From the NCBI GenBank assembly GCA_034530875.2, contig JAVRCJ020000032.1, forward strand, positions 1 through 64,000: 64,000 nt of DNA. Direction: 5' to 3'. A program made the translations under genes and the position numbers. Each line of letters begins with the position of its first letter. Position 1 is the first letter of the stretch. The stretch comes from Nostoc sp. DedSLP01 (lineage in GTDB: Bacteria > Cyanobacteriota > Cyanobacteriia > Cyanobacteriales > Nostocaceae). A model generated the notes under the pieces. That model saw nothing but the letters and a program-made list of their open reading frames with translations. It was not told where the DNA came from and did no database searches. Of the stretch, positions 12,990 through 25,417 are shown piece after piece.

Positions 12990-15900
12990 ATGCATCTGCA
13001 CTATTTAGACCCCCAACACCTTGAAGAATTAGTCAAGAGTAGTGGTATAGACTTACACTTAGTGCAACTTAATTTCCAGTCACTCCAAGGTGTAAGTGTT
13101 TACGAGTATTTGTTGATTTCTGAGCTACTTCCCCGTACCAATAATGGAATGGTAAAAAGTAGTTGGTTGCAGCGTTACGCTCATATAACTGAAGGTGGTT
13201 GGTGGTGTTCTGGACTAGATCCCTTGAATAATTGGCAAATGATGGAATGGGGATGCTTTAAGCCAAACCAACCCCGACAAAATAACAATGGCAAATCCAT
13301 CAAATACGAGCATCCCCCCAGCACGCCAACGCGGGTATTTTGTTTGCGGGTAACACAGCAAATCTGGCAGCAAGTTGCAGCGCGTTACAATTTAGCCATG
13401 CCAGATGATATCGCTATTACCGCGGATGGCGAAGCTAGTGGTTTTTGGCAATGGGTGATGGGAAAGAATATTCCCATCATCATCTGCGAAGGTGTGAAGA
13501 AAGCAGCAACCCTGTTGACACAAGGATATGTAGCTATTGGCGTTCCTGGAATTACTAGCGGTTATCGGGTTGTCAAAGATGAATTTGGAAAAGTCACCCG
13601 TCGTCAGTTGATACCAGACTTAGCAGTGTTTGCGATGACAAAGCGTCGCTTTTATATTTGCTTTGATTTTGAAACTCAACCCAAGAAAATCGCTGCTATC
13701 AATAATGCCATTTCTCAACTTGGTTGTTTATTTCAGCAAAAAAGTTGCCCTGTTAAAGTCATCGAACTTCCAGGAATAGAAAAAGGTGTTGATGATTTTA
13801 TTGTTGCCAAAGGTGCAACTAGTTTCGATAAACTTTATCGCCAAAGCGTTGACTTAGAAATTTATCTTGCCCAAACCAAGCCACACACAGAATTAAGCAT
13901 TCCGGCTGCCCTAACTTTTAACCGTCCTTATATAGGTGAAATACCTTTCCCCACCTCTGGATTAGTAGGAGTCAAATCAGCAAAAGGAACAGGCAAAACC
14001 ACAGCATTACAGAGTGTTGTTCAGCAAGCAAAAAATAGAAATCAGCCTGTTTTGTTAATTACCCATAGAATTTTACTAGGAAAATTTTTGTGTGACAAAA
14101 TAGGCATTCAATGGGGAATAGGAATAATGCCCAATCCCCAATCCCCAATCCCCAATCCCCAATCCCCAATTCCCAAATCTTTCGGCTTGTGTGTAGACTC
14201 AATTTGGAAGTTAAACCCTGAAGATTGGCATGGGGCAATAGTAATCTTAGATGAAGTCGAACAATCTATATGGCATCTTTTAAGCAGTAATACTTGTAAA
14301 AACAAGCGCGTCAAAATATTAAAATTATTTCAAGAATTAATTGCTACAGTTTTAACAACTGGAGGGTTAGTTATTGCTCAAGATGCTGATTTATCAAATG
14401 TATCCCTTGAATATTTACAGGGATTAGCAGGAATTAAATTAACACCTTGGGTAGTTATTAACGAATGGAAACCTCAGCAAGGTTGGGATGTGACTTTTTA
14501 CGATTCGCCTAACCCAACACCGCTAATTCATCAATTAGAATTAGATTTACTTGCCGGACGTAAATGTTACGTTACTACCGATAGTCGCGCTGGACGTTAC
14601 AGTTGTGAAACCATTGAAGGTTATTTAAAAGAAAGATTACAAAAATTAAGACGACAGTTTCCTCAAACTTTAGTAGTTAGTAGTCACACTACAAATACAC
14701 CCGGTCACGCCGCAGTTGATTTTATTGCAGCTATTAATCAAAAAATATCTGAATATGACGGTGTTTTTGTTACCCCTAGCCTTGGTACAGGAATTAGTAT
14801 TGATGTTCGACATTTCGACCGAGTTTATGGTATTTTTCAAGGCGTAATTCCTGATTCTGAAGCACGACAAGCATTAGCAAGAGTAAGGGATGATGTCCCG
14901 CGTGTTGTCTGGTGTGCTAAACGAGGTATTGGTTTAATTGGTAGTGGTAGTACAAATTACCGCTTGCTATCTGATTGGTATCAGGAAAATCAAAAAGAAA
15001 ATTTAGCTTTGCTCAGTCCGTTACATAAAATAGATGTGGATTTGCCTTTAGTCCACGACCCAATTCATTTGCGAACTTGGGCAAAATTATCTGCTAGAGT
15101 AAATGCATCGATTCGCCTCTATCGTCAATCAATGCAAGATGGCTTAATTGCTGACGGACATCTAATACAGATGCGCAGTAATGCAGTTCACAATAATATT
15201 ATTCGAGATTTACGCCTTGCATTTTTGGCTAGCGATCCCAATGATTTAGCAACCCGCAAAAGGTTAATTTTAGAAATCGTCAAAGTCCAAAAAGATTGGA
15301 CGCAAAGACGTCAAAAAGCTAAAGACATTAAACGCAAAATAAAAGAAATTAAACAACAAAATCAGTTAGCAGTAGCAACAGCCGTGGCTAATGCTAAAGA
15401 TATCGATTATGTAGAATACGAACAACTATTAGTTAAACATTCCTTGACTGATGAAGAACGCAATCAAATTAACAAATATGTTCTCCGGCAAAAATATGGA
15501 ATAAAGGTTACTTCAGCATTGAAATTGCAAGATGACCAAGGATATTACAGTCAATTATTAATTCACTATTATCTGATCCATGAAAGCGAATATTTTCATA
15601 TTAGAGACCGTCAAGAATGGCATCAGCAATTATCTTGGGGTGAAGGCAAAGTTTTTCTCCCAGATTTAAAGACTTATACACTCAAAGTCGAGGCTATGAG
15701 AGCTTTAGGGATGCTGCAATTTTTGGAAATTAGACGAGAATTTACAGAAAATGATGCTGAGGTAATTTTACTGAAAAATGTTGCTTTTCAGCATAGTAAG
15801 CATATTAAAAGAGTGCTGGGCATTAATTTAGTTGGAGACAAAGACCAATTTGCAGGAATTAAAATACTTAGCCGATTGTTAAATTTGTTAGGTTTGAAAC

Positions 15901-16133
15901 TTAAGCGAGTCAATGAGGTTTATCAAATCGATTTAGCAACACTCAATGATGGTAGAGAAAAAATATTTGCAGTTTGGCAACAACGTGATGAATTGATATT
16001 GGCTCATCTTAAGAGTGGTGTCTATAAAGTTGCCGATTATTCGTCAGACTGGAAAGGTGAGATTATCGAAACCAAGCCTAGTAAGGTAGACCAAAGATTA
16101 TCTAGGCTGAGTCTACCGTTATCAAAAATTTAA
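12990..16133 (+). CDS. CyRepA1-family replication protein (DUF3854 TOPRIM-like primase plus helicase-like domain)
   Basis: KYEHPP, IIICEGVKKA, ICFD, KGVDD (DUF3854); SAKGTGKT Walker A; ILDEVEQ Walker B; PSLGTGISID; QALARVR. Confidence 0.85.
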   Translation: MHLHYLDPQHLEELVKSSGIDLHLVQLNFQSLQGVSVYEYLLISELLPRTNNGMVKSSWLQRYAHITEGGWWCSGLDPLNNWQMMEWGCFKPNQPRQNNNGKSIKYEHPPSTPTRVFCLRVTQQIWQQVAARYNLAMPDDIAITADGEASGFWQWVMGKNIPIIICEGVKKAATLLTQGYVAIGVPGITSGYRVVKDEFGKVTRRQLIPDLAVFAMTKRRFYICFDFETQPKKIAAINNAISQLGCLFQQKSCPVKVIELPGIEKGVDDFIVAKGATSFDKLYRQSVDLEIYLAQTKPHTELSIPAALTFNRPYIGEIPFPTSGLVGVKSAKGTGKTTALQSVVQQAKNRNQPVLLITHRILLGKFLCDKIGIQWGIGIMPNPQSPIPNPQSPIPKSFGLCVDSIWKLNPEDWHGAIVILDEVEQSIWHLLSSNTCKNKRVKILKLFQELIATVLTTGGLVIAQDADLSNVSLEYLQGLAGIKLTPWVVINEWKPQQGWDVTFYDSPNPTPLIHQLELDLLAGRKCYVTTDSRAGRYSCETIEGYLKERLQKLRRQFPQTLVVSSHTTNTPGHAAVDFIAAINQKISEYDGVFVTPSLGTGISIDVRHFDRVYGIFQGVIPDSEARQALARVRDDVPRVVWCAKRGIGLIGSGSTNYRLLSDWYQENQKENLALLSPLHKIDVDLPLVHDPIHLRTWAKLSARVNASIRLYRQSMQDGLIADGHLIQMRSNAVHNNIIRDLRLAFLASDPNDLATRKRLILEIVKVQKDWTQRRQKAKDIKRKIKEIKQQNQLAVATAVANAKDIDYVEYEQLLVKHSLTDEERNQINKYVLRQKYGIKVTSALKLQDDQGYYSQLLIHYYLIHESEYFHIRDRQEWHQQLSWGEGKVFLPDLKTYTLKVEAMRALGMLQFLEIRREFTENDAEVILLKNVAFQHSKHIKRVLGINLVGDKDQFAGIKILSRLLNLLGLKLKRVNEVYQIDLATLNDGREKIFAVWQQRDELILAHLKSGVYKVADYSSDWKGEIIETKPSKVDQRLSRLSLPLSKI
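14129..14177 (+). repeat. STRR heptamer array (CCCCAAT)n inside the cyRepA coding sequence
   Basis: gcccaat + 5x ccccaat + tcccaaa; encodes PNPQSPIPNPQSPIP. Confidence 0.9.
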
Positions 16134-16942: not shown

Positions 16943-19900
16943 TTACTTTTTTTCTTGTGGCTGTTGCTTTTGGGCTTCTGGCAATAGTTGGAATTTACCT
17001 TTCTCAACCTTTAATAAGATAGGTTTATTCTGGCGCTCCCCATCTTCAGTAAACTTTAACGGATAACCCGAAGTATCCCTTGCTTTAATATTGATTTGTC
17101 GCAAATTTTGTAGAATAGTAGACCTAGAAGGTTTGGCTGATAAAGCTTTAATCAAAGCTTGAGTAGCATCATAACTCATAGCCGTGCGCCAGGTTACCGT
17201 TTTTCCCCATTTCTGCTTTGCTGTTTCTACAAAAACTTTTGTTTCTGGTGCTGAGCTGAACCAAGGTACACCCAATATTAAGCCTTCGACAGCTTCTTTT
17301 CCATCTTTCAAAGTTCCGGGTCTGTATAAAGCAGTTTCACCTAATATTGCTAATTTTTGTAATTTAGGATTTTTTTTAGGATCGGAAACCAGACCGGCAT
17401 TGACTTTAGTAATGTCTAGAGCCACCGAAATCTGTTGTTTGTCTTGTGCATTAGGAAATAGCAAAGCTGCTTGTGGCTGATATTGAAGTACAGTATTAAA
17501 TTCTTCGTCTACATCCTGTTCTACTTCAGTGAAATCAATATTTTGCACAACTCTACCCTGAAGCTTATCAAAATAATTGATAAATTCCTCACTCAAGTTT
17601 TTGCTATCTTCACTTTTATTATAAAAAATAACAACTTTGTTGAGACGAAGTGAGTTTTTGATATACTCAGCGAGTCGTTTGGCGATCGCTGCATTAGAAG
17701 GAGTCATTCTAAATAAAACTTGACTTTCTTTACTTGGGGATAAATCACCTGTACTCGTAGGAGAAATTGTCGCTATCCCAGCTTTTTCATAGGTAATTAA
17801 TGCTGCCTTAATAGTATCATTAGAAGAATTTCCAATTACTCCTAATATCGATTGATTCTTCATTTTAACCAATTCAGTAGCTACTTGTTTTGCTTGTTCA
17901 GGGTTGTTAGCGTCATTAGCAATAACAATTTCTAATAATTGACCATTCAACCCACCATTAGTATTAAATTTGTCTTGTGCTTGTGCTACACCACGCAGTA
18001 TTTCTGTAGCTATCACTTCTGAATTCTCTCCTGGCACAACCACTGCAAACGAGATGGGATAACCTTTTTGGCGAGCTAAGGCATTGTTATAATAAATTAA
18101 TGCTTCTGGATCATCTTTATTTCCATCAATATATTGTTTAAAAAATACAATAGCTTCACTATACTTGCCTTGACTAAAATCTTCAATACCTCGTTTACGA
18201 TTAGGATTAAAATATTTAACAACATAAGGGAATATAGTGCGTTCACCACTACTAATATTCTCCATTACCTTATTTTCAGATGTTGCTAGACAAAAACCTA
18301 TTCGATTCGATTCACTTGTCTGGCAAGGAATTGATAATAATTGATACAATGCAACACCGATTAGACCCAGACCAATAATCGCAGATCCACGTAATAATTG
18401 TCGTTCACCATTAACACCTTTTGGTTCTAACTTTTTAACTGATAATTCTCTTTGATTATTAACATCTTTTGATTCTAATTTTTTAAATGATAGCTGTTGG
18501 TTAACTTGCTCATTATTAATAGTATTAAGAGCATTCTCTCTCTTAACCAATACACTAGAATTCAATTTATCAGCTTCTTTTTCAGCTTCAATTTCTCGCA
18601 GCTTTTGCTTGGCAGATATTCTATCTGGTTCAAGTTCTAAAACTTTTTTAAACTGTTCTGCTGCCTGATTAAAATCCTTTTGTATTATCAAGCTATTACC
18701 ATATCCTTCTAGCGCCTTCAAGAAACTTTCTTTGTTGCGTATAGGGTCAAATTTATATGTTCGTTCATATAGTTTTATAGCTTCATCAAAATTCCCAATC
18801 TCTAAGTACTCTTCTGCTAAAAGAGGTATCGTACTGAAATGATTGGGATTAATAGCTAAAATTTGTCGATGATTATTTAGTACAACTTGCTTTGTTTCTT
18901 GTTGAAGATGTTCATTTGTAATATGTAAAATTTGTTTTATTTCTTCTGATTTTATTTTTTCAAGTTCATTAATTTCATCTTTTAAAGCATGGCGTTTTTC
19001 TAACCAACGACGGATAAATTCAATTTTTATTTTTGGCTGAATTCCATCTAATAAATCTTTCTCGTAGAGTTGCTGTAAACCTTTTTTAAGTTCGTCTGTC
19101 TCAACAACTCCATATAGAAGTAGTACTTTTGAAATAGAATTTTCTTTTAATGCAGAATTATTTTGAGCTTCTACAACCGCAGAAAGGATTACTTTTTCTG
19201 AAATAGTTAGCCCATCCCAAAACCATGACAATCCGGCTTCTGCACTTTCTATTGCTCTATCTACAATTGCTTCTACATCAGCACGAGTAATCTTCCAATT
19301 ATTTTCTGTTCTAGCAAAAACAAATATGGTAAAACAAATTACTTGCGTGAAATAAGGATGCCCTGCTGAAAGTTCTAGAATTGCCCGTATAGCATCTTCA
19401 TCATAATTGAGTATCCCTTGTGTAGGTTTACAAATTAATCGTCTTGCACTTATTTCATCTAATAATCCAATTTTTTGATAAGGAACATTTCCGAAAAAAT
19501 TCTGTAAATTTTCTAAATCATTTTGATAACGCCCTAAAACTAGAATAATAAAAAGTTTTTCTTGTGTATCAATTAGAGATTTTAAATAACTAAAGAAATT
19601 GCTAGCACGCTCTACGATATTAACATTGTTACTCTCATCAATAACATCAAATTCATCTAACATTAAAACTAAATTTTTATTACCTATTATTTTATATATT
19701 TTCGTTAAGAATTCATTTGAAAATATCTCTAGATTCTCTTGTATATTATCAGATAAATCTCCTTCCTCATTTTCCAACTGTAAGTGTTCAGCAATCTCTG
19801 TAGTAAGGCTACTAATAATTTCACCAAGTGACCAAGTGCTTTTATCTTGTAAATCAAAATTAACAAACTCAAAGTCATTATGAGTAATTTGTTCGGGAAT

Positions 19901-20116
19901 TTGCTGAAGTATAGACGACATACCAATACGCCGTTGACCGTGCAACAAGATAATTTTTCTACCCTGTATTAGACAATCTTGGATATATTGGAATAAACTT
20001 TCACGTCCAAAAAACTTGTTAGGTTCGGTAATAGGACGGCCTATGATGTAAGGATTTCGAGCGTTTGAATTTGACATAATAATTTCTATTTCTGCAAAGT
20101 TAGTCGTTTTATCCAT
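16943..20116 (-). CDS. STAND/AAA ATPase-TPR-TM-periplasmic binding protein (LIVBP-like) fusion, Walker A K->M
   Basis: NPYIIGRP, FFGRE, HGQRRIGMSS, LMLDEFD, AGHPYFTQ; TPRs; TM; EILRGVAQAQ, IANDAN and WRTAMSYDA binding-protein motifs. Confidence 0.85.
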   Translation of the reverse strand: MDKTTNFAEIEIIMSNSNARNPYIIGRPITEPNKFFGRESLFQYIQDCLIQGRKIILLHGQRRIGMSSILQQIPEQITHNDFEFVNFDLQDKSTWSLGEIISSLTTEIAEHLQLENEEGDLSDNIQENLEIFSNEFLTKIYKIIGNKNLVLMLDEFDVIDESNNVNIVERASNFFSYLKSLIDTQEKLFIILVLGRYQNDLENLQNFFGNVPYQKIGLLDEISARRLICKPTQGILNYDEDAIRAILELSAGHPYFTQVICFTIFVFARTENNWKITRADVEAIVDRAIESAEAGLSWFWDGLTISEKVILSAVVEAQNNSALKENSISKVLLLYGVVETDELKKGLQQLYEKDLLDGIQPKIKIEFIRRWLEKRHALKDEINELEKIKSEEIKQILHITNEHLQQETKQVVLNNHRQILAINPNHFSTIPLLAEEYLEIGNFDEAIKLYERTYKFDPIRNKESFLKALEGYGNSLIIQKDFNQAAEQFKKVLELEPDRISAKQKLREIEAEKEADKLNSSVLVKRENALNTINNEQVNQQLSFKKLESKDVNNQRELSVKKLEPKGVNGERQLLRGSAIIGLGLIGVALYQLLSIPCQTSESNRIGFCLATSENKVMENISSGERTIFPYVVKYFNPNRKRGIEDFSQGKYSEAIVFFKQYIDGNKDDPEALIYYNNALARQKGYPISFAVVVPGENSEVIATEILRGVAQAQDKFNTNGGLNGQLLEIVIANDANNPEQAKQVATELVKMKNQSILGVIGNSSNDTIKAALITYEKAGIATISPTSTGDLSPSKESQVLFRMTPSNAAIAKRLAEYIKNSLRLNKVVIFYNKSEDSKNLSEEFINYFDKLQGRVVQNIDFTEVEQDVDEEFNTVLQYQPQAALLFPNAQDKQQISVALDITKVNAGLVSDPKKNPKLQKLAILGETALYRPGTLKDGKEAVEGLILGVPWFSSAPETKVFVETAKQKWGKTVTWRTAMSYDATQALIKALSAKPSRSTILQNLRQINIKARDTSGYPLKFTEDGERQNKPILLKVEKGKFQLLPEAQKQQPQEKK

Positions 20117-20119
20117 AAA

Positions 20120-23100
20120 TTATGGTCTTGACTCTTGAATTTCTGTAAAGTTACCTCCTTTAGCTCGAACAAGTATAGGTTTGCTCATTGTTTCTCCATC
20201 AGAATCAAACTTTAGTATATATCCGGCAGTTTTATTGGCGGGAATATTGATTTGCCTCAAACTTGAAAGAATATCTGAGCGAGATACATTCGGAGAAAAA
20301 GTTTTAAAAGTCTTAATAAAAGCTTGAGTTGCATCAAAACTAGTTGCTGTTCGCCAGCTAACCTCATTTCCCCACAATCCTAAAGCCTCAGTTGCAAATT
20401 TTGTCGATTCTTGTGTTTGCCTAAACCAAGGTACAGCTACAATAAGTCCTTCTGCTCTAGAAGCCTCCTGGCTATACAGGGTATCTCCTCCCAAAAACTG
20501 TAAATTTCGCATTTTTAAGTCTTCATCTTGTGCAAGTTGAAGGGATAGTCTTGTATGTTTCAAGTCGGGAAATAACAAAACTCCCTTAGCTTTATTCTGA
20601 CTTAAACTATCTAAAAGTTTGGTTTTAATATTTTGACCTGGATTACTAAAATCTATTATTTCTGCAACTTTGCCATTTCGTTCTTTAAATTCTTGTTTAA
20701 ACATATCCATAAGACTACGACTATAAGTGCTTTCAGAATCGTACAAAATTATTACTTCATTTAACCCTGATTTATAAGTATAATCTGCTAACTTTTTTCC
20801 AAACACTGCATCAGATGATACTGTTCTAAAGAAAACATCATTTTTTAATTCTATACTGGTACTTGTGGGAGAAATAATTGGTAATTTAGCTTGTGTATAT
20901 TCTTCTAATGCTTTTTTTGTTGACCTACTAGAGTAGTGTCCAATTATGCCGAGTATTTCTGTTTTTTCTGCTAGTTGTTTAGCTATTTTTTTAGCTTCTT
21001 CTGGATTGTCTGCATCATTGGCAATAACAATTTCTAGCAACCTACCTTGATATCCACCATCATCATTAAACTGTTTTTGTGCTTGTGCTACACCTCGCAA
21101 GATTTCTTGAGCGATTGATTGTGCATTATTCACAGGTACAACGACCGCTAAGATAAAAGAGTTACCATCTTTACGAGCAAGAGCATTATTTTGATAAATT
21201 AGTACTTCTGGATCGTTAATATTAGCTTCTCTAGCATTTTTAAAGTATTCGCTAGCTGTAGCATATTCTTTATTTTTATATGCTTCAACACCTTTTTGAC
21301 GAGACATACGATAATTATTAGAAGCAGAACTAATATCAGAAAAGAGAATACTTTCTCCGCTACTAATATTTTTATTAAAATTATTATTAGCAATCGGGAG
21401 GCAGTAAAGACCAAATTGCATTTTTTCTTCTGCTTCATGGCAAGAAGTTAACCAACGATTTCCTACTAGTCCGCCTATTCCTAAAATAGTAACAATTCCT
21501 GCTGTCACTAGAGATAAATTTCTCCAAGGAAGTTTTTGTTTTTCTCGCTCGTTATTTTTTAGATTAGTACCATTATTGGAATTCTCTGATATTTGTGAAT
21601 AATTTGCAGGAAATTGACGAGCGTCAATTTGTTTTATTTTTTCTTGTGCAGATATGTTCTCTTCGTCGTAATCTAAAATTAATTGAAACTGTGCTTTAGC
21701 TTGAGATATTTTTTGTTGCAATATTAAATCATTACCATAATCTTCGATTGCATCAATAAATCTTTGTTTATTTGCTTCTGGATCAAATTTATAAGCACGT
21801 TCGTAAAGTTCTATAGCTTTATCAAAATTTTTATTTTTTAAATTACCTTGAGCAAGTTTAAGTAGAGAAGGATAGTGATTAGGATTAATCTTGAAAACCT
21901 CTTGATATTCAAGTAATGCATCATTATTTTGACCATTTTCAGTAAATTTAATCGCTTTTTCTAAATGAGGTTGAATTTCCTCTAATTTTAGGTGTTCTAA
22001 TTCTTTAATTTCTTGTTTGATTGGATGTTTCTTTGTTATCCACAGTCTAACTAGTTCAACTTTAACTTGCCCATTTTTATCTAACGACTTATTTTGAATT
22101 AATTCCTCAACTGCTTTTATTAGTTCCTCTGTCTGAATAACACCATGTTCTTTTAGAATCTCAATTGGCCCTTTGTTTGGCACAGAATCACGTGCTCTGT
22201 TTTGAGCCTCTGCCGCTGCGGAGAAGATAACTTGCTGTGAGGGAGATACCCCTTTCCAAAACCAGTCTAACCCACCTTCAGCAGATTCTATAGCTCTGTC
22301 TATAATCGCGGTTACATCATCACGAGTGACCTTCCTATTAGAATTTTCCCTAGCTTGTCGAAAAATTTCAGAGCAAATAGCTTGGGTTAAAAATGGATGA
22401 CCAGCACAAATTTTATAAATTTCATCTATTGCTTGTTTTTCATATATTAGTGATTTTTGCGCTGGTTTAGTAACCAGCTTTTCAGAACCTAGTGGATCTA
22501 ATAAACCAATTTCTTGGTTAGGTGCACCATGATACAAACGAAGGATAATGTCTAATTCCCCCACATTTCGTCCAATTACAGGAATTAAAAATAATCTTTC
22601 TTGATTATTAATTAAAGTTTTTAAATAACTAAAAAAAGCTGAGGTTTTCTTAAGAACACCATCATCTTTAGTCTTTTCTGCAACATCAAATTCATCTAAC
22701 AATAAAATTACTTTTTTATTGCCCAATTGTTTATAAATTTCTGGCAAAAATTTATTTGAAAACCAATTTTCTTGGCTATCACATTCTTGTTGCTCTGGCA
22801 AATAAACATCTTTTAATTCTAATTCTTCTACAATATATTGAGCCAGATCGTACAAGATACCATTCACAGATTTTGTCGATTTATTTTGTAAATCGAAGTT
22901 AATACAAACTAAATTATCGTCACTAATAAAGTGATCGAATAGTTTAAGTACAGACGATTTACCGATACGTCTCAGACCATGCAATAAAATAATTTTGCTA
23001 TTATTATCTAGATTGTTTTTAATAAAGTTGAATAGTTTTTCACGCCCAATCAAGTTTTCTGGATTATCTATTGGTACACCAACAATGTAAGGATTGTTTC

Positions 23101-23164
23101 CAAAATGGATATTTGATTGATTATCTACATTAGACATAGTTTTCTCTTGATTGTAATTAGGCAT
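20120..23164 (-). CDS. STAND/AAA ATPase-TPR-TM-periplasmic binding protein (LIVBP-like) fusion
   Basis: NPYIVGVP, LIGRE, HGLRRIGKSS, LLLDEFD, AGHPFLTQ; TPRs; TM; EILRGVAQAQ, IIGHYSS, WRTATSFDA; paralog of the adjacent gene. Confidence 0.85.
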   Translation of the reverse strand: MPNYNQEKTMSNVDNQSNIHFGNNPYIVGVPIDNPENLIGREKLFNFIKNNLDNNSKIILLHGLRRIGKSSVLKLFDHFISDDNLVCINFDLQNKSTKSVNGILYDLAQYIVEELELKDVYLPEQQECDSQENWFSNKFLPEIYKQLGNKKVILLLDEFDVAEKTKDDGVLKKTSAFFSYLKTLINNQERLFLIPVIGRNVGELDIILRLYHGAPNQEIGLLDPLGSEKLVTKPAQKSLIYEKQAIDEIYKICAGHPFLTQAICSEIFRQARENSNRKVTRDDVTAIIDRAIESAEGGLDWFWKGVSPSQQVIFSAAAEAQNRARDSVPNKGPIEILKEHGVIQTEELIKAVEELIQNKSLDKNGQVKVELVRLWITKKHPIKQEIKELEHLKLEEIQPHLEKAIKFTENGQNNDALLEYQEVFKINPNHYPSLLKLAQGNLKNKNFDKAIELYERAYKFDPEANKQRFIDAIEDYGNDLILQQKISQAKAQFQLILDYDEENISAQEKIKQIDARQFPANYSQISENSNNGTNLKNNEREKQKLPWRNLSLVTAGIVTILGIGGLVGNRWLTSCHEAEEKMQFGLYCLPIANNNFNKNISSGESILFSDISSASNNYRMSRQKGVEAYKNKEYATASEYFKNAREANINDPEVLIYQNNALARKDGNSFILAVVVPVNNAQSIAQEILRGVAQAQKQFNDDGGYQGRLLEIVIANDADNPEEAKKIAKQLAEKTEILGIIGHYSSRSTKKALEEYTQAKLPIISPTSTSIELKNDVFFRTVSSDAVFGKKLADYTYKSGLNEVIILYDSESTYSRSLMDMFKQEFKERNGKVAEIIDFSNPGQNIKTKLLDSLSQNKAKGVLLFPDLKHTRLSLQLAQDEDLKMRNLQFLGGDTLYSQEASRAEGLIVAVPWFRQTQESTKFATEALGLWGNEVSWRTATSFDATQAFIKTFKTFSPNVSRSDILSSLRQINIPANKTAGYILKFDSDGETMSKPILVRAKGGNFTEIQESRP

Positions 23165-23291
23165 AATTTTATATTCGTTGTAAAATTACTTGCTTCCTGC
23201 TACAAGATTACTTATCTCTTCCTTTGCGTCTTTTGCTGTTTCTTACAAAAATTATGTATTCTTTGAGCAGGAAGGAAGTAGACATTATTAG

Positions 23292-24578
23292 TTATGTATG
23301 AAAATTTCCCATTAAAGTAGAAATCAATTTTAGCGTAGAAGGTACTTTATCTTTGTGCATCCAAAACCAATTCATTGCGTTTGTAACTTTCTCAACTTGC
23401 TCTTTACTCATTAAATTGAGAAAAACTTTTTGGCGTTTTTTAACTGCATCATCATTTGTATTCCAAACTTCTTGAACAACCCATTTTTCCATATTAGGAG
23501 AAGTAAATGAATATATTTTTTTACCATCTATTTCGTTTGTTTTAACTACACCTTGTTCTTCTAGATTGGTTAAATCTCGCTCTTGTTGAATAAATATCAA
23601 TTTAATATCGCTTAAATCAAATTTAATTTTTTTGTGCAGATGGCCCTCAAGATTAAAAATAGCCAACAGCATTAACAATGTCTGCTCATCTTCATTACAT
23701 CGGTTCCAAATATTTTCAAAAATTTGTTTGCTTGTACTTTCAAATTCTCTAACAATTGCTTCTAGATTGGGTAAATCTCCAGTTCTTAAGTTTCTGTATA
23801 TGATAGAGCCAATAATCTGTAATAAAGCTGGATGTTTACCAGTAATTGATGGAATTAAGCTTTTTAATTCCGCTTGAAGTTGCACATCAAAAGCTTTACT
23901 AATTAACTTATCAATTTCAGTATCAGTTAACGGTTTGAGCGACTGAAAAAGATAGTGATTATACCAAGGAGAAGCTTTAGTATTGAGCTTTGGCCCAAGT
24001 TCACTGAGGCGCTTGAGTGAACTGACAATCATTGAGAGATGTTTTCTTTCTTGAGAGTGAACAGCTAAATTACGGCACTCGCTCAAGAATTCCTGCATGT
24101 CAGCTTCAGTGTAGTGAGCGTTAGAGATTAAAGCGGCGTCAAAGTTATCTACTAATAGCACTACAAATTTATGTTTTTTTCCTAATTTACGCAGTACCTG
24201 GCGTAGGCTTTCTTTTGTGGTTTGCCCTTTATTTAGAAAATTTTCAACTTCTATTTGCAAGCTGGGTTCGCTCTCCAACTTATCCTTCAGATTGCTTAAA
24301 ACTTCTTGCCAAAAGCCAGAGGGAGTAAAGGGAATGATGCTCTGGCAGTTGAGAAAAACAATCACGGCTTGAGACGAATCTAATTGATGTTTTTCCCATA
24401 CTTCCAGTGAAATTAGTTGTTCTAAGAAAGAAGACTTGCCCATACCGGGGCCACCCCAAATTGCCAAATGACTGCGGTTATAAATCTGGTCAAATGCAGC
24501 ACCAATTTCCTTAGTTCGTCCTGTAAAACTTTCTGGAGATGCTGGGACTCCTGGGAAGAATGGATTTCGTTTGTTCAT
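23292..24578 (-). CDS. Stand-alone STAND/AAA ATPase
   Basis: NPFFPG, FTGR, GGPGMGKSS Walker A, VLLVDNFD Walker B, GKHPALLQ GxP motif, wHTH-like C-terminus. Confidence 0.82.
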   Translation of the reverse strand: MNKRNPFFPGVPASPESFTGRTKEIGAAFDQIYNRSHLAIWGGPGMGKSSFLEQLISLEVWEKHQLDSSQAVIVFLNCQSIIPFTPSGFWQEVLSNLKDKLESEPSLQIEVENFLNKGQTTKESLRQVLRKLGKKHKFVVLLVDNFDAALISNAHYTEADMQEFLSECRNLAVHSQERKHLSMIVSSLKRLSELGPKLNTKASPWYNHYLFQSLKPLTDTEIDKLISKAFDVQLQAELKSLIPSITGKHPALLQIIGSIIYRNLRTGDLPNLEAIVREFESTSKQIFENIWNRCNEDEQTLLMLLAIFNLEGHLHKKIKFDLSDIKLIFIQQERDLTNLEEQGVVKTNEIDGKKIYSFTSPNMEKWVVQEVWNTNDDAVKKRQKVFLNLMSKEQVEKVTNAMNWFWMHKDKVPSTLKLISTLMGNFHT

Positions 24579-25067: not shown

Positions 25068-25228
25068 AAGTAGGTCAACTTAATTAAACATCAAACGCTC
25101 AATTTGATACTGACCTGACTTGGCTATGTACTAGGTACTGTGGCGAGGTTGGTTAAAATTACATGACTCTTGCGGGACGTCGGTTTTACCTTAAGTTGAC
25201 ACCAATGACACCTGTTCGCTCCTACAAT
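25068..25228. repeat. MITE-like remnant
   Basis: gtcaacttaa (25074-83) / ttaagttgac (25191-200) inverted pair; 21-bp identity with 60-80. Confidence 0.55.
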
Positions 25229-25417
25229 TGATGCGTTATAAAGATTGTTGGAATTAGTAGATGGAGAGATACTATATACCCATTATTTATATAATACAAA
25301 ATTGTCACTAAATGTAGTATAATATTTTTAGCTTATTAAACTGCAAATTTGTGTAACTAACTCAGCGCCAAGTTACTTATCTCATGAGTTAAGATGGCTA
25401 TATTTTGATCGAGTGAT

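Follow-up and report, generated by a model that had tools for sequence, protein, structure and literature searches.

Three adjacent genes in Nostoc sp. DedSLP01 encode a solo ATPase (A) and two membrane-spanning proteins (R1 and R2) that join a receptor-type STAND (B) to an outer Venus-flytrap domain. With a probability of about 0.55, we propose that they form an outside-in receptor that nucleates A-B assembly, in which two MNS-type STAND ATPases make up an obligate, asymmetric pair. All three lie on the reverse strand in the order A, R1, R2, within the window, the whole 64,000-nucleotide stretch of contig JAVRCJ020000032.1 that was analyzed. The ORF coordinates agree with those of a first-pass annotation made from the sequence:

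23292..24578, minus strand: gene A, solo STAND ATPase, 428 aa, with NTPase, GxP helical domain, winged helix and short C-terminal Trp-rich helices (ORF, AF2 model)
24072..24074, minus strand: A Arg169, candidate arginine finger for the B nucleotide site (invariant in 85/85 A domains; predicted interface)
23307..23453, minus strand: A C-terminal helices, aa 376-424, family-specific (helices in the model; conserved pattern)
20120..23164, minus strand: gene R1, receptor with intact B-type STAND, 1014 aa (ORF, motifs, domain matches, model)
21995..23107, minus strand: R1 B-type STAND, aa 20-390, with Walker A GLRRIGKSS, Walker B LLLDEFD, sensor-1 Arg199, GHP and winged helix
21617..21985, minus strand: R1 cytoplasmic TPRs, aa 394-516 (domain match and model)
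21461..21517, minus strand: R1 TM helix, aa 550-568, preceded by a low-confidence linker (KD 2.05; family statistics)
21401..21442, minus strand: R1 Cys575/Cys588 hairpin, probable disulfide (two short strands in a low-confidence model)
21170..21367, minus strand: R1 extracytoplasmic helical TPR-like cap, aa 600-665 (model; highly conserved columns)
20141..21160, minus strand: R1 type I periplasmic-binding (LIVBP/Venus-flytrap) domain, aa 669-1008 (domain and fold matches)
16943..20116, minus strand: gene R2, second receptor, 1057 aa (intact frame)
19919..19921, minus strand: R2 Met66 replacing the Walker A lysine, motif GQRRIGMSS (common to P0154 and L113)
18329..18385, minus strand: R2 TM helix, aa 578-596, then Cys598/Cys609 (KD 1.96 at aa 578)
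16982..18262, minus strand: R2 cap and binding domain (R1 Ser746 and Tyr814 correspond to Asn and Asp here)

A and R1 are separated by 127 bp. R1 and R2, which are 40% identical lengthwise, are tandem paralogs 3 bp apart, as first described, provided that R2 starts at its first ATG; a 77%-identical R2 homolog starts at the equivalent of Met14. The AT-richness reported earlier is also evident, with a GC content of 0.32-0.35 in the cluster genes, whereas 2961 ORFs of at least 300 aa average 0.423. None of three genomic queries for a branched-chain ABC permease or ATPase matched the window, in line with the earlier statement that no such genes are nearby. A scan for promoters and terminators gave a signal no better than chance.

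Both receptors begin with a P-loop ATPase, continue with TPRs and end in a Peripla_BP_6/ANF_receptor domain, and each has one hydrophobic 19-mer with two Cys just downstream. These features reproduce the three genes and the order STAND-wHTH-TPR-TM-Cys pair-LIVBP given by the first-pass annotation. In a set of 121 proteins, comprising the two window receptors and 119 homologs, exactly one TM-like segment was found in 117, which supports the claimed transmembrane topology. Among the 102 receptors with a placeable ectodomain start after the TM segment, two Cys lie in the TM-ectodomain interval in 97, and in 78 the side ahead of the TM carries more positive charge than the side behind it. The computational evidence shows that R1 and R2 each cross the membrane once, with the B-type STAND and TPRs on the cytoplasmic side and the cap and Venus-flytrap domain outside. 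The R1 model has pLDDT under 50 at aa 518-596, and TPRs are missing from 3/47 first and 13/36 second receptors. The helical cap ahead of the binding domain is an addition to the first-pass annotation.

The STAND hallmarks are present, namely Walker A and B, a GxP helical domain and a C-terminal winged helix, with folds that match 2QEN, 2FNA, Apaf-1 and resistosomes; the Walker A lysine is intact in A and R1 but is Met66 in R2. First-position receptors retain the Walker A lysine (48/48), the Walker B DE (48/48) and R199 (47/48), and HHalign indicates homology of the R1 B-type STAND with A (99.1% over 283 columns). A itself, modeled with an AF2 pLDDT of 92.7, has a lysine at the Walker A position in 81/85 domains and an arginine in 4/85. 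As first described, it is a STAND ATPase with no effector, consisting only of NTPase, helical and winged-helix parts and a short tail. That tail may be a membrane-docking or output element; its hydrophobic moment is unremarkable, and an atlas search returned no named family. Although A has no close solved relative by sequence, the best fold matches to its three parts are the archaeal MJ/PH-type proteins PAB2304 (2QEN; Z 22.0, rmsd 3.9, 318 aligned) and SSO1545 (2FNA; Z 20.4, rmsd 4.5, 314 aligned), stand-alone proteins that are only 14-15% identical to A. We know of no receptor partner for either. The earlier term "NLR-like" therefore fits loosely: the STAND core stands, but the nearest folds of A are archaeal and there is neither an N-terminal effector nor a long repeat sensor. 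Unlike in Avs/bNACHT proteins, no effector precedes the STAND, which starts at about aa 20, and the TPR part spans about 120 aa.

A and B share only 25% identity, yet they are tightly linked. They occur in the identical 21/301 genomes, and at 69/70 assessable loci B is the gene next after solo A, although these counts are not independent because the sampled genomes are related. This co-occurrence favors the earlier assignment of the solo ATPase to the receptors. Two receptors are present at 39/76 loci, natural B-TPR-A fusions exist, and one locus (L155) has A alone. The cargo on B is interchangeable and includes kinase, GAF, NACHT, LRR, Csx3 and a second STAND. At 17/76 loci B has no ectodomain in the available sequence, some of which ends at contig ends; this suggests that A-B also works without an outside sensor and that the TPRs could be the true input.

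Structure prediction for an A-B dimer gave a score of 0.75 versus 0.00 for the best control, in keeping with the interaction first proposed for the solo ATPase; the mark applied to such scores is reached by 116/157 solved complexes and 2/215 mismatched pairs. At least 95% of contacts agreed between runs, and partner pLDDT was at least 79. A is predicted to dock onto the B nucleotide site with its Arg169 face, the Arg169 helix lying on the B nucleotide face against Arg66, Ser70, Asp157 and Glu158. Only in A does the helix that follows Walker B carry an invariant arginine; the matching helix of B has no conserved Arg, which makes the pair asymmetric, and the Walker A arginines of B are invariant. 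We infer that Arg169 is an arginine finger acting on the B nucleotide site. Interface residues are barely more conserved than the rest (0.71 vs 0.67 in A, 0.65 vs 0.64 in first and 0.78 vs 0.65 in second receptors). Since head-to-tail packing is generic for AAA+ folds, the complex score may partly reflect fold likeness.

The cluster is patchily distributed, occurring in 20/120 genomes of the genus and 21/401 of the phylum. Its recurrent neighbors are housekeeping genes with lineage-level synteny. PADLOC matched 18/164 flanking-gene representatives, a raw count without a background rate that consists mostly of generic families, and its matches to the window proteins were weak. Carriage by plasmids or phages was considered and rejected, as neither collection contained a match to the system. 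A fixed insertion site was likewise rejected: upstream of the RlaP gene, 0/20 congeners have either the cluster or trx (3-16 kb examined), and because the trx side alone is shared with L113, no clean empty site was found. Our literature search found no published description of an A-B receptor system. Four homolog accessions and the terms "Peripla_BP_6" and "Npun" are absent from the portion of the PMC13581612 supplements examined, the largest files of which may classify the clade, and two supplements of PMC7159879 gave no match.

R2 is probably a pseudo-ATPase with an altered pocket. The R1 binding domain has conserved Ser746, Thr769 and Tyr814, and among first receptors Ser746 is kept in 47/48 and Tyr814 in 48/48. 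Met66 is not a sequencing error or private mutation, since it is shared with P0154 and L113. Relative to the L113 ortholog, dN/dS is 0.14-0.41 in all R2 domains; all domains of the system are under purifying selection, including those of R2 despite Met66 and the degenerate pocket. The Walker A lysine was lost in 7/37 second receptors versus 0/48 first receptors, through six changes on a 120-row tree. As 30/37 second receptors retain it, a pseudo-ATPase role is not general. Neither the lysine-to-methionine change nor the degenerate pocket figured in the first-pass annotation.

The suggestion that diverged binding domains sense different ligands is not supported as a general design. Within-locus ectodomain likeness averages 0.67 and reaches 0.92 (37 pairs), versus 0.54-0.55 across loci, a tendency toward homogenization that counts against it; STAND domains, unlike ectodomains, form position-specific classes. 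R1 and R2, at 0.44, are tied for the lowest likeness among the 37 pairs. Given the lost pocket residues and P-loop lysine, a non-binding, non-catalytic partner would fit R2 as well as one with a new ligand.

The same ectodomain clade occurs, at 34-43% identity, on Ser/Thr kinases, where a kinase replaces the STAND pair as output. It is also found on a caspase-nSTAND1-WD40 protein and on AAA_35 STANDs, each of which follows a solo AAA_35 of its own. Two stand-alone copies in the DedSLP01 genome lie behind membrane genes that, judging by N-terminal motifs, are presumably kinase-like. This sharing, with the single internal TM, upholds the earlier view of a transmembrane receptor rather than a part of ABC uptake. 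The R1 domain resembles LivJ/LivK-type binding proteins (TM-score 0.7-0.85 by target) and, more weakly, mGluR, a class C GPCR. It has polar pocket residues as their flytraps do, but identity is about 20% and the cap, Cys hairpin and STAND tether are extra. The top homologs are named "ABC transporter substrate-binding protein" in databases, the very mislabeling that had been foreseen.

The AAA_35 pairs are also tandem cyanobacterial STANDs, a solo AAA_35 preceding an AAA_35-TM protein with the same ectodomain (L099, L101), but their solos have an N-terminal extension (EAD4 in L101) that A lacks. The three window proteins do not match AAA_35 (PF14516, cut-off 27 bits) at E 0.1, whereas true AAA_35 receptors score 85-103 bits. 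We take AAA_35 to be the Npun2340/2341 family, reportedly defined by Leipe et al. in 2004; that family is named in the portion of Kaur et al. 2021 (PMC8195603) consulted. The same portion describes an nSTAND2 operon, "STAND+wHTH -> nSTAND2+wHTH+TPRs+effector", as a predicted hetero-multimer whose second STAND tends to lose its NTP motifs, with a conserved arginine finger in both proteins and a HEPN or GT4 effector among the membership features; the 12 table rows examined are from proteobacteria and myxobacteria. Our cluster likewise has adjacent MNS-like STAND genes, in the second of which the STAND is followed by a wHTH, TPRs and a variable C-terminal module. Unlike in that account, first receptors keep Walker A and B and lysine loss affects some second receptors; the conserved arginine is in A only, the finger position not being given in the PMC8195603 passage; and the cargo is a TM and binding domain, often in two receptors, with no HEPN or GT4 domain match. 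Against the nSTAND2 Pfam family PF20702 (cut-off 24 bits), A scored 15.2 bits and R1 and R2 had no match at E 0.1, while 5/30 proteins of related loci scored 25-39 bits. The family is thus nSTAND2-related but distinct.

A conflict (immune) system like nSTAND2, triggered from inside the cell, in which the TPR or winged-helix part senses an intracellular cue and the TM and binding domain are swappable effector or anchor cargo, seems to us rather unlikely. The architecture mirrors the nSTAND2 operon as described in that part of PMC8195603, the effector position is filled by cargo including kinase, NA-iREase1-NACHT and Csx3, TM-PBP is among the variable C-terminal modules of EACC1 caspase systems in the available part of PMC7159879, and the genes are patchy and AT-rich. 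However, the operon encodes no nuclease, TIR or HEPN, and its housekeeping neighbors and the PADLOC counts do not bear out a defense-island context. The plasmid and phage collections gave no match, the first-receptor pocket is conserved, and TPRs are dispensable in some receptors. That R2 is a decaying duplicate, A and R1 alone being functional, is very improbable: although the P-loop lysine and two pocket residues are gone and second receptors are truncated or broken in L128, L132, L159, L160 and L172, R2 is constrained in every domain, its Met is shared, and its frame is intact.

We also judge improbable an ExeA/GspA-like envelope machine, whose outer domain would bind a wall or sheath component while ATP drives multimerization for envelope assembly. 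ExeA has a cytoplasmic ATPase, a TM and an outer binding domain, the same topology as the receptors, and AAA_22 matches 17/18 receptors and 20/20 A proteins at E 0.01. In ExeA/GspA-ExeB, though, the outer domain binds peptidoglycan and the partner is ExeB or a secretin; no peptidoglycan-binding Pfam domain matched the window receptors, and no secretin, ExeB-like or peptidoglycan-binding partner was evident among recurrent neighbors, by listing rather than family scan. The same A-B pair also bears soluble signaling cargo, and the ectodomain is common to kinases. Hardly plausible is a set of membrane-tethered binding proteins that supply an ABC transporter for branched-chain amino acids, its genes lying at another site, while the STAND part acts as regulator. 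The LIVBP fold, the database names and liv-type permeases on another contig of this genome speak for it. Against it, the receptors have the type I periplasmic-binding fold but score 54-67 bits on NF011933 (cut-off 477) and have an internal TM in place of an N-terminal export signal, while the ABC-type binding proteins of the genome are only 22-24% identical. Permeases lie within 10 kb at just 1/76 loci, on the opposite strand and with their own binding protein, and the cap is absent from transporter proteins.

Under the proposed outside-in mechanism, an amino-acid-like molecule or small peptide would close the R1 flytrap and cluster the ectodomains, R1 with R2. Clustering is likelier than a rigid twist because the TPR-TM linker is long and flexible and Ser/Thr kinases carry the same ectodomain. 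Clustered, ATP-bound R1 would recruit A, whose Arg169 would complete the R1 site. B would thereby nucleate, and further A subunits may join head to tail at the membrane; since B has no finger to give back, assembly would be polar. R2, without the P-loop lysine or a canonical pocket, may be a structural or tuning partner. The output is likely a threshold stress or threat response through the A tail or winged-helix/TPR surfaces, and no effector enzyme is encoded in the operon. In NAIP-NLRC4 and plant sensor/helper NLR pairs, a sensing STAND, often with a degenerate P-loop, nucleates and a partner STAND assembles. A-B resembles them in division of labor, by analogy only: those proteins belong to the NACHT or NB-ARC type, sense through cytoplasmic LRRs and act through CARD/CC/TIR effectors. 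An unlikely but more specific version would make the system a transmembrane NAIP-NLRC4 counterpart: a GABA-B-like heterodimer, in which a ligand-binding receptor competent for ATP pairs with a pseudo-ATPase receptor that binds no ligand, would turn an amino acid or peptide outside the cell (a cue of damage or of a neighbor) into a one-directional solo-STAND polymer through a single-sided arginine finger, its C-terminal amphipathic helices acting on the membrane as effector.

To our knowledge, characterized bacterial STANDs read cytoplasmic signals. As a tractable example, this family links a STAND switch through the membrane to a flytrap domain and combines it with an obligate ATPase partner and a one-sided candidate arginine finger; its repeated P-loop lysine loss in the second receptor recalls eukaryotic sensor/helper pairs. 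These findings suggest an undescribed route from an outside chemical cue to a protein-assembly switch in filamentous cyanobacteria, one whose top homologs are concealed by a transporter label. Because the ectodomain is common to kinases and several STAND families in these organisms, one ligand screen would explain the input of many orphan receptors.

The STAND cluster comprises three open reading frames in a genome of 8.57 Mb and 40.9% GC. As the first-pass annotation had described, these encode a solo STAND ATPase (A) and two receptors (R1 and R2), whose type of STAND module is termed B. An ectodomain, formed by a helical cap and a type I periplasmic-binding domain, follows the transmembrane (TM) helix. 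The features are:

23292-24578, minus strand: A, 428-aa ORF
20120-23164, minus strand: R1, 1014-aa ORF
16943-20116, minus strand: R2, 1057-aa ORF
R1 aa about 20-390: STAND module (structure model)
R1 aa 394-516: TPRs (structure model)
R1 aa 518-596: linker and TM helix (low confidence in the model)
R1 aa 600-665: helical cap (structure model)
R1 aa 669-1008: type I binding fold (structure model)

R1 and R2 are 40% identical; each gives a weak AAA-type match and a strong Peripla_BP_6/ANF_receptor match, contains TPRs, and carries a single hydrophobic segment followed by two Cys. In the R1 model (mean pLDDT 83), the predicted binding fold resembles LIVBP-type proteins, with a weaker likeness to mGluR domains. 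The model of A (pLDDT 92.7) best matches two archaeal ATPases, 2QEN with Z 22.0 and rmsd 3.9 over 318 aligned residues and 2FNA with Z 20.4 and rmsd 4.5 over 314, with Cdc6/ORC and resistosomes ranking lower. The predicted topology and AT-rich DNA noted at first pass were both borne out: one TM-like segment is present in 117 of 121 proteins (R1, R2 and 119 homologues selected by similarity to R2), the Cys pair in 97 of the 102 receptors with a placed ectodomain start, of which 78 obey the positive-inside rule, and the cluster genes have a GC fraction of 0.32-0.35, compared with a mean of 0.423 across 2961 ORFs of at least 300 aa. Two genes away lies a chromosomal DUF3854/CyRepA1-family replication-protein gene (12990-16133) with a short tandem-repeat insert within its reading frame. 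The spacer between the cluster and an RlaP-family gene holds a short dispersed repeat (about 25160-25260; about 20 genome matches), which may mark a rearrangement junction.

A and B are homologous (HHalign 99.1%) yet just 25% identical, and separate order-wide searches (E 1e-30) matched them in the same 21 of 301 genomes. A search of species-representative genomes gave 220 matches to A, and we examined 76 loci taken from the best 80. A is followed by two B-TM-ectodomain receptors in 39 of these, by one in 10, by a broken receptor in 2, and in 17 by a B that carries other cargo or is truncated where the contig ends; 3 stop at the contig edge, A is present only as a fusion in 3, one (L168) has A and then a B-A fusion, and one (L155) is a true lone A without B. 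In 69 of the 70 loci that could be assessed, B comes directly after A, although these counts overstate independence because the sampled genomes are related. B-TPR-A fusions recur. Judged by gene linkage, the two form an obligate pair; a check of co-occurrence between the solo ATPase and receptor genes had been proposed at first pass.

Almost all named records carrying the family are filamentous cyanobacteria, and the closest named locus among the matches listed is L113, from Nostoc calcicola. Distribution is patchy within the genus (20/120 congeners, one being a weak broken match) and the phylum (21/401 genomes). Locus L057 (G250:C1:2720500-2730600) has six consecutive A-/B-type STAND genes, one a B-A fusion. 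A Leptolyngbya/Phormidesmis version (L156, L161-L163, L166, L174, L183 and L188), located next to a tRNA-synthetase-like gene in a conserved position, consists of A and then a B-TPR protein of roughly 640 aa, of which about 120 aa at the C-terminus are unassigned. The window's genome has two other solo-STAND and membrane-STAND pairs (C5:263167-264261 with C5:260744-263164; C5:83619-84725 with C5:84706-87360), both in reversed layout, with 4-8 N-terminal TM helices and then a C-terminal B-like STAND.

Both halves of the receptor are found with other partners. Behind B, the TM-ectodomain may give way to a kinase, GAF, NACHT-pentapeptide, NA-iREase1-NACHT, LRR, Csx3 or another STAND, and in other proteins this ectodomain occurs in fusion with Ser/Thr kinases. 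In L099:4208-8295 and L101:6168-10354, a solo AAA_35 protein (EAD4-fused in L101) precedes an AAA_35-TM protein with this ectodomain, in parallel to the A-B system; the ectodomain also ends a 3238-aa caspase-nSTAND1-WD40 protein (L103:4580-14293). In three genomes (L108, L109 and L110), TM-ectodomain genes lie upstream of tubulin-like Tubulin_2 genes. At C6:176851-179894 and C1:118026-120941 in the window's genome, membrane genes with four C-terminal TM helices, which their motifs suggest to be kinase-like, are each directly followed by a gene for a stand-alone TM-cap-binding-domain protein from this ectodomain clade; these pairs are possible split receptor kinases. The genome's ABC-type binding proteins are 22-24% identical, no ABC permease was found in the 64-kb window, where the first pass had seen none near the cluster, and 1 of the 76 loci has permeases at a distance of up to 10 kb. 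Because the ectodomain is shared with kinases and other STANDs and permeases are rare, its distribution identifies it as a signalling input module, and a role as part of a transporter was rejected.

Two further arrangements involve B-type modules. In L175:11351-13261, a B-type STAND is joined with TPRs and a ring-nuclease-like Csx3 domain, and the next gene has caspase-like and PD-T4-6 matches. Two tandem B-type modules precede the TM helix in receptors of about 1500 aa (L121:14470-19101, L127:14333-18856 and P0155-P0157).

First and second receptors differ in their ATPase residues. The Walker A Lys and the Walker B DE are both present in 48/48 first receptors and the sensor-1 Arg in 47/48; among second receptors the counts are 30/37 for the Lys and 23/37 for the Arg. 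In R2 the Lys is replaced by Met, as in homologue P0154 and L113. The Lys is absent from 27 of 120 receptor STANDs, with T, M, R, I, L, Q or V in its place; on a FastTree tree of these 120, built without that column, its loss takes 6 changes, a count that gene conversion could inflate; well-supported branches force at least 5 of them. Pocket residues follow suit: Ser746 occurs in 47/48 first versus 30/37 second receptors and Tyr814 in 48/48 versus 26/37, with Asn and Asp at these positions in R2. The two positions align with Ser and Tyr in solved binding proteins, and we presume their correspondence to LivJ numbering. LivJ binds Ile via Ser79, Thr102, Tyr150 and Tyr202 (PMC6983066).

First or second receptor position requires 4 changes on the STAND tree versus 23 on the ectodomain tree (shuffled mean 28, minimum 21), and mean ectodomain identity is 0.67 (0.44-0.92) within loci versus 0.54-0.55 across loci. 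Thus, by these comparisons, ectodomains are often homogenised within loci while the STANDs stay distinct, a pattern easier to reconcile with a two-subunit receptor and one common ligand than with two ligands. The earlier suggestion of diverged ectodomains sensing different ligands does not match this family-wide trend; the window's pair lies at the divergent extreme (0.44). Relative to L113, dN/dS is 0.14-0.57 in every domain of A, R1 and R2.

Structure prediction supports the proposed interaction of A with a receptor. A with R1 residues 20-392 scored 0.75, versus 0.00 for the best control. Of 157 solved complexes, 116 reached that mark, as did 2 of 215 mismatched pairs, a calibration that applies roughly because the alignments were our own. 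Contacts agreed across runs by at least 95%, with partner pLDDT at least 79. The predicted interface joins the nucleotide face of B (24-31, Arg66, Ser70, Asp157, Glu158 and 293-306) to the helix after Walker B and the 198-213 motif of A. Arg169 on that helix is invariant (85/85), and the matching helix of B lacks a conserved Arg. In the AAA+ protein TnsC, a neighbouring subunit's arginine completes the ATP pocket (bioRxiv 10.1101/2021.05.25.445634); by analogy, Arg169 may complete that of B. A search by sequence found no close solved relative, but two points caution against over-reading the contact: head-to-tail packing is generic, and conservation at the interface is barely above the rest (A, 0.71 versus 0.67; first receptors, 0.65 versus 0.64; second receptors, 0.78 versus 0.65).

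The A-B family behaves like paired STAND systems and falls outside nSTAND2, AAA_35 and Avs by the tests run. Its layout is similar to that of the two-gene nSTAND2 operon, in which the second STAND is inactive and the effectors are HEPN or GT4, described by Kaur et al. 2021 (PMC8195603), who also name the MNS Npun2340/2341 family and list a TPRs+nSTAND1+PBPB protein in a supplement. Caspase systems vary in modules that include TM plus PBP (Kaur et al. 2020, PMC7159879), and periplasmic lectin domains are predicted on some NACHT targets of DGRs (10.1101/2023.09.22.558884). The main text of a 2026 STAND survey (PMC13581612) lacks the word 'periplasmic', and its largest tables may include this clade. 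Our literature search, outside whose scope Leipe 2004 lay, found no description of an A-B-ectodomain receptor system. The family is real, conserved, cyanobacterial and apparently undescribed.

The main rival to an outside-in receptor is a conflict system triggered from inside the cell, with the ectodomain as cargo, which we consider distinctly less probable. Genomic context favours neither. Recurrent neighbours are housekeeping genes, the 246 flanking genes were reduced to 164 representatives, of which PADLOC matched 18, mostly to generic families (a raw count with no background control), and the plasmid and phage collections searched held no match to the cluster; in L134:4744-8024, PADLOC identified a complete UG34 reverse transcriptase and NERD-helicase pair directly upstream of A. 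The outside-in receptor is the most likely reading (probability roughly 0.55), resting on the observed architecture, linkage and residue patterns and on the predicted A-B contact; ligand, clustering, polymerisation and output are inferred. Ligand would drive clustering of the ectodomains, enabling ATP-bound R1 to recruit A, whose Arg169 would complete the R1 site; R2 would act as a pseudo-ATPase partner, and further A subunits may extend a polar assembly. The output would be a threshold response to stress or threat, with no enzyme encoded for it.
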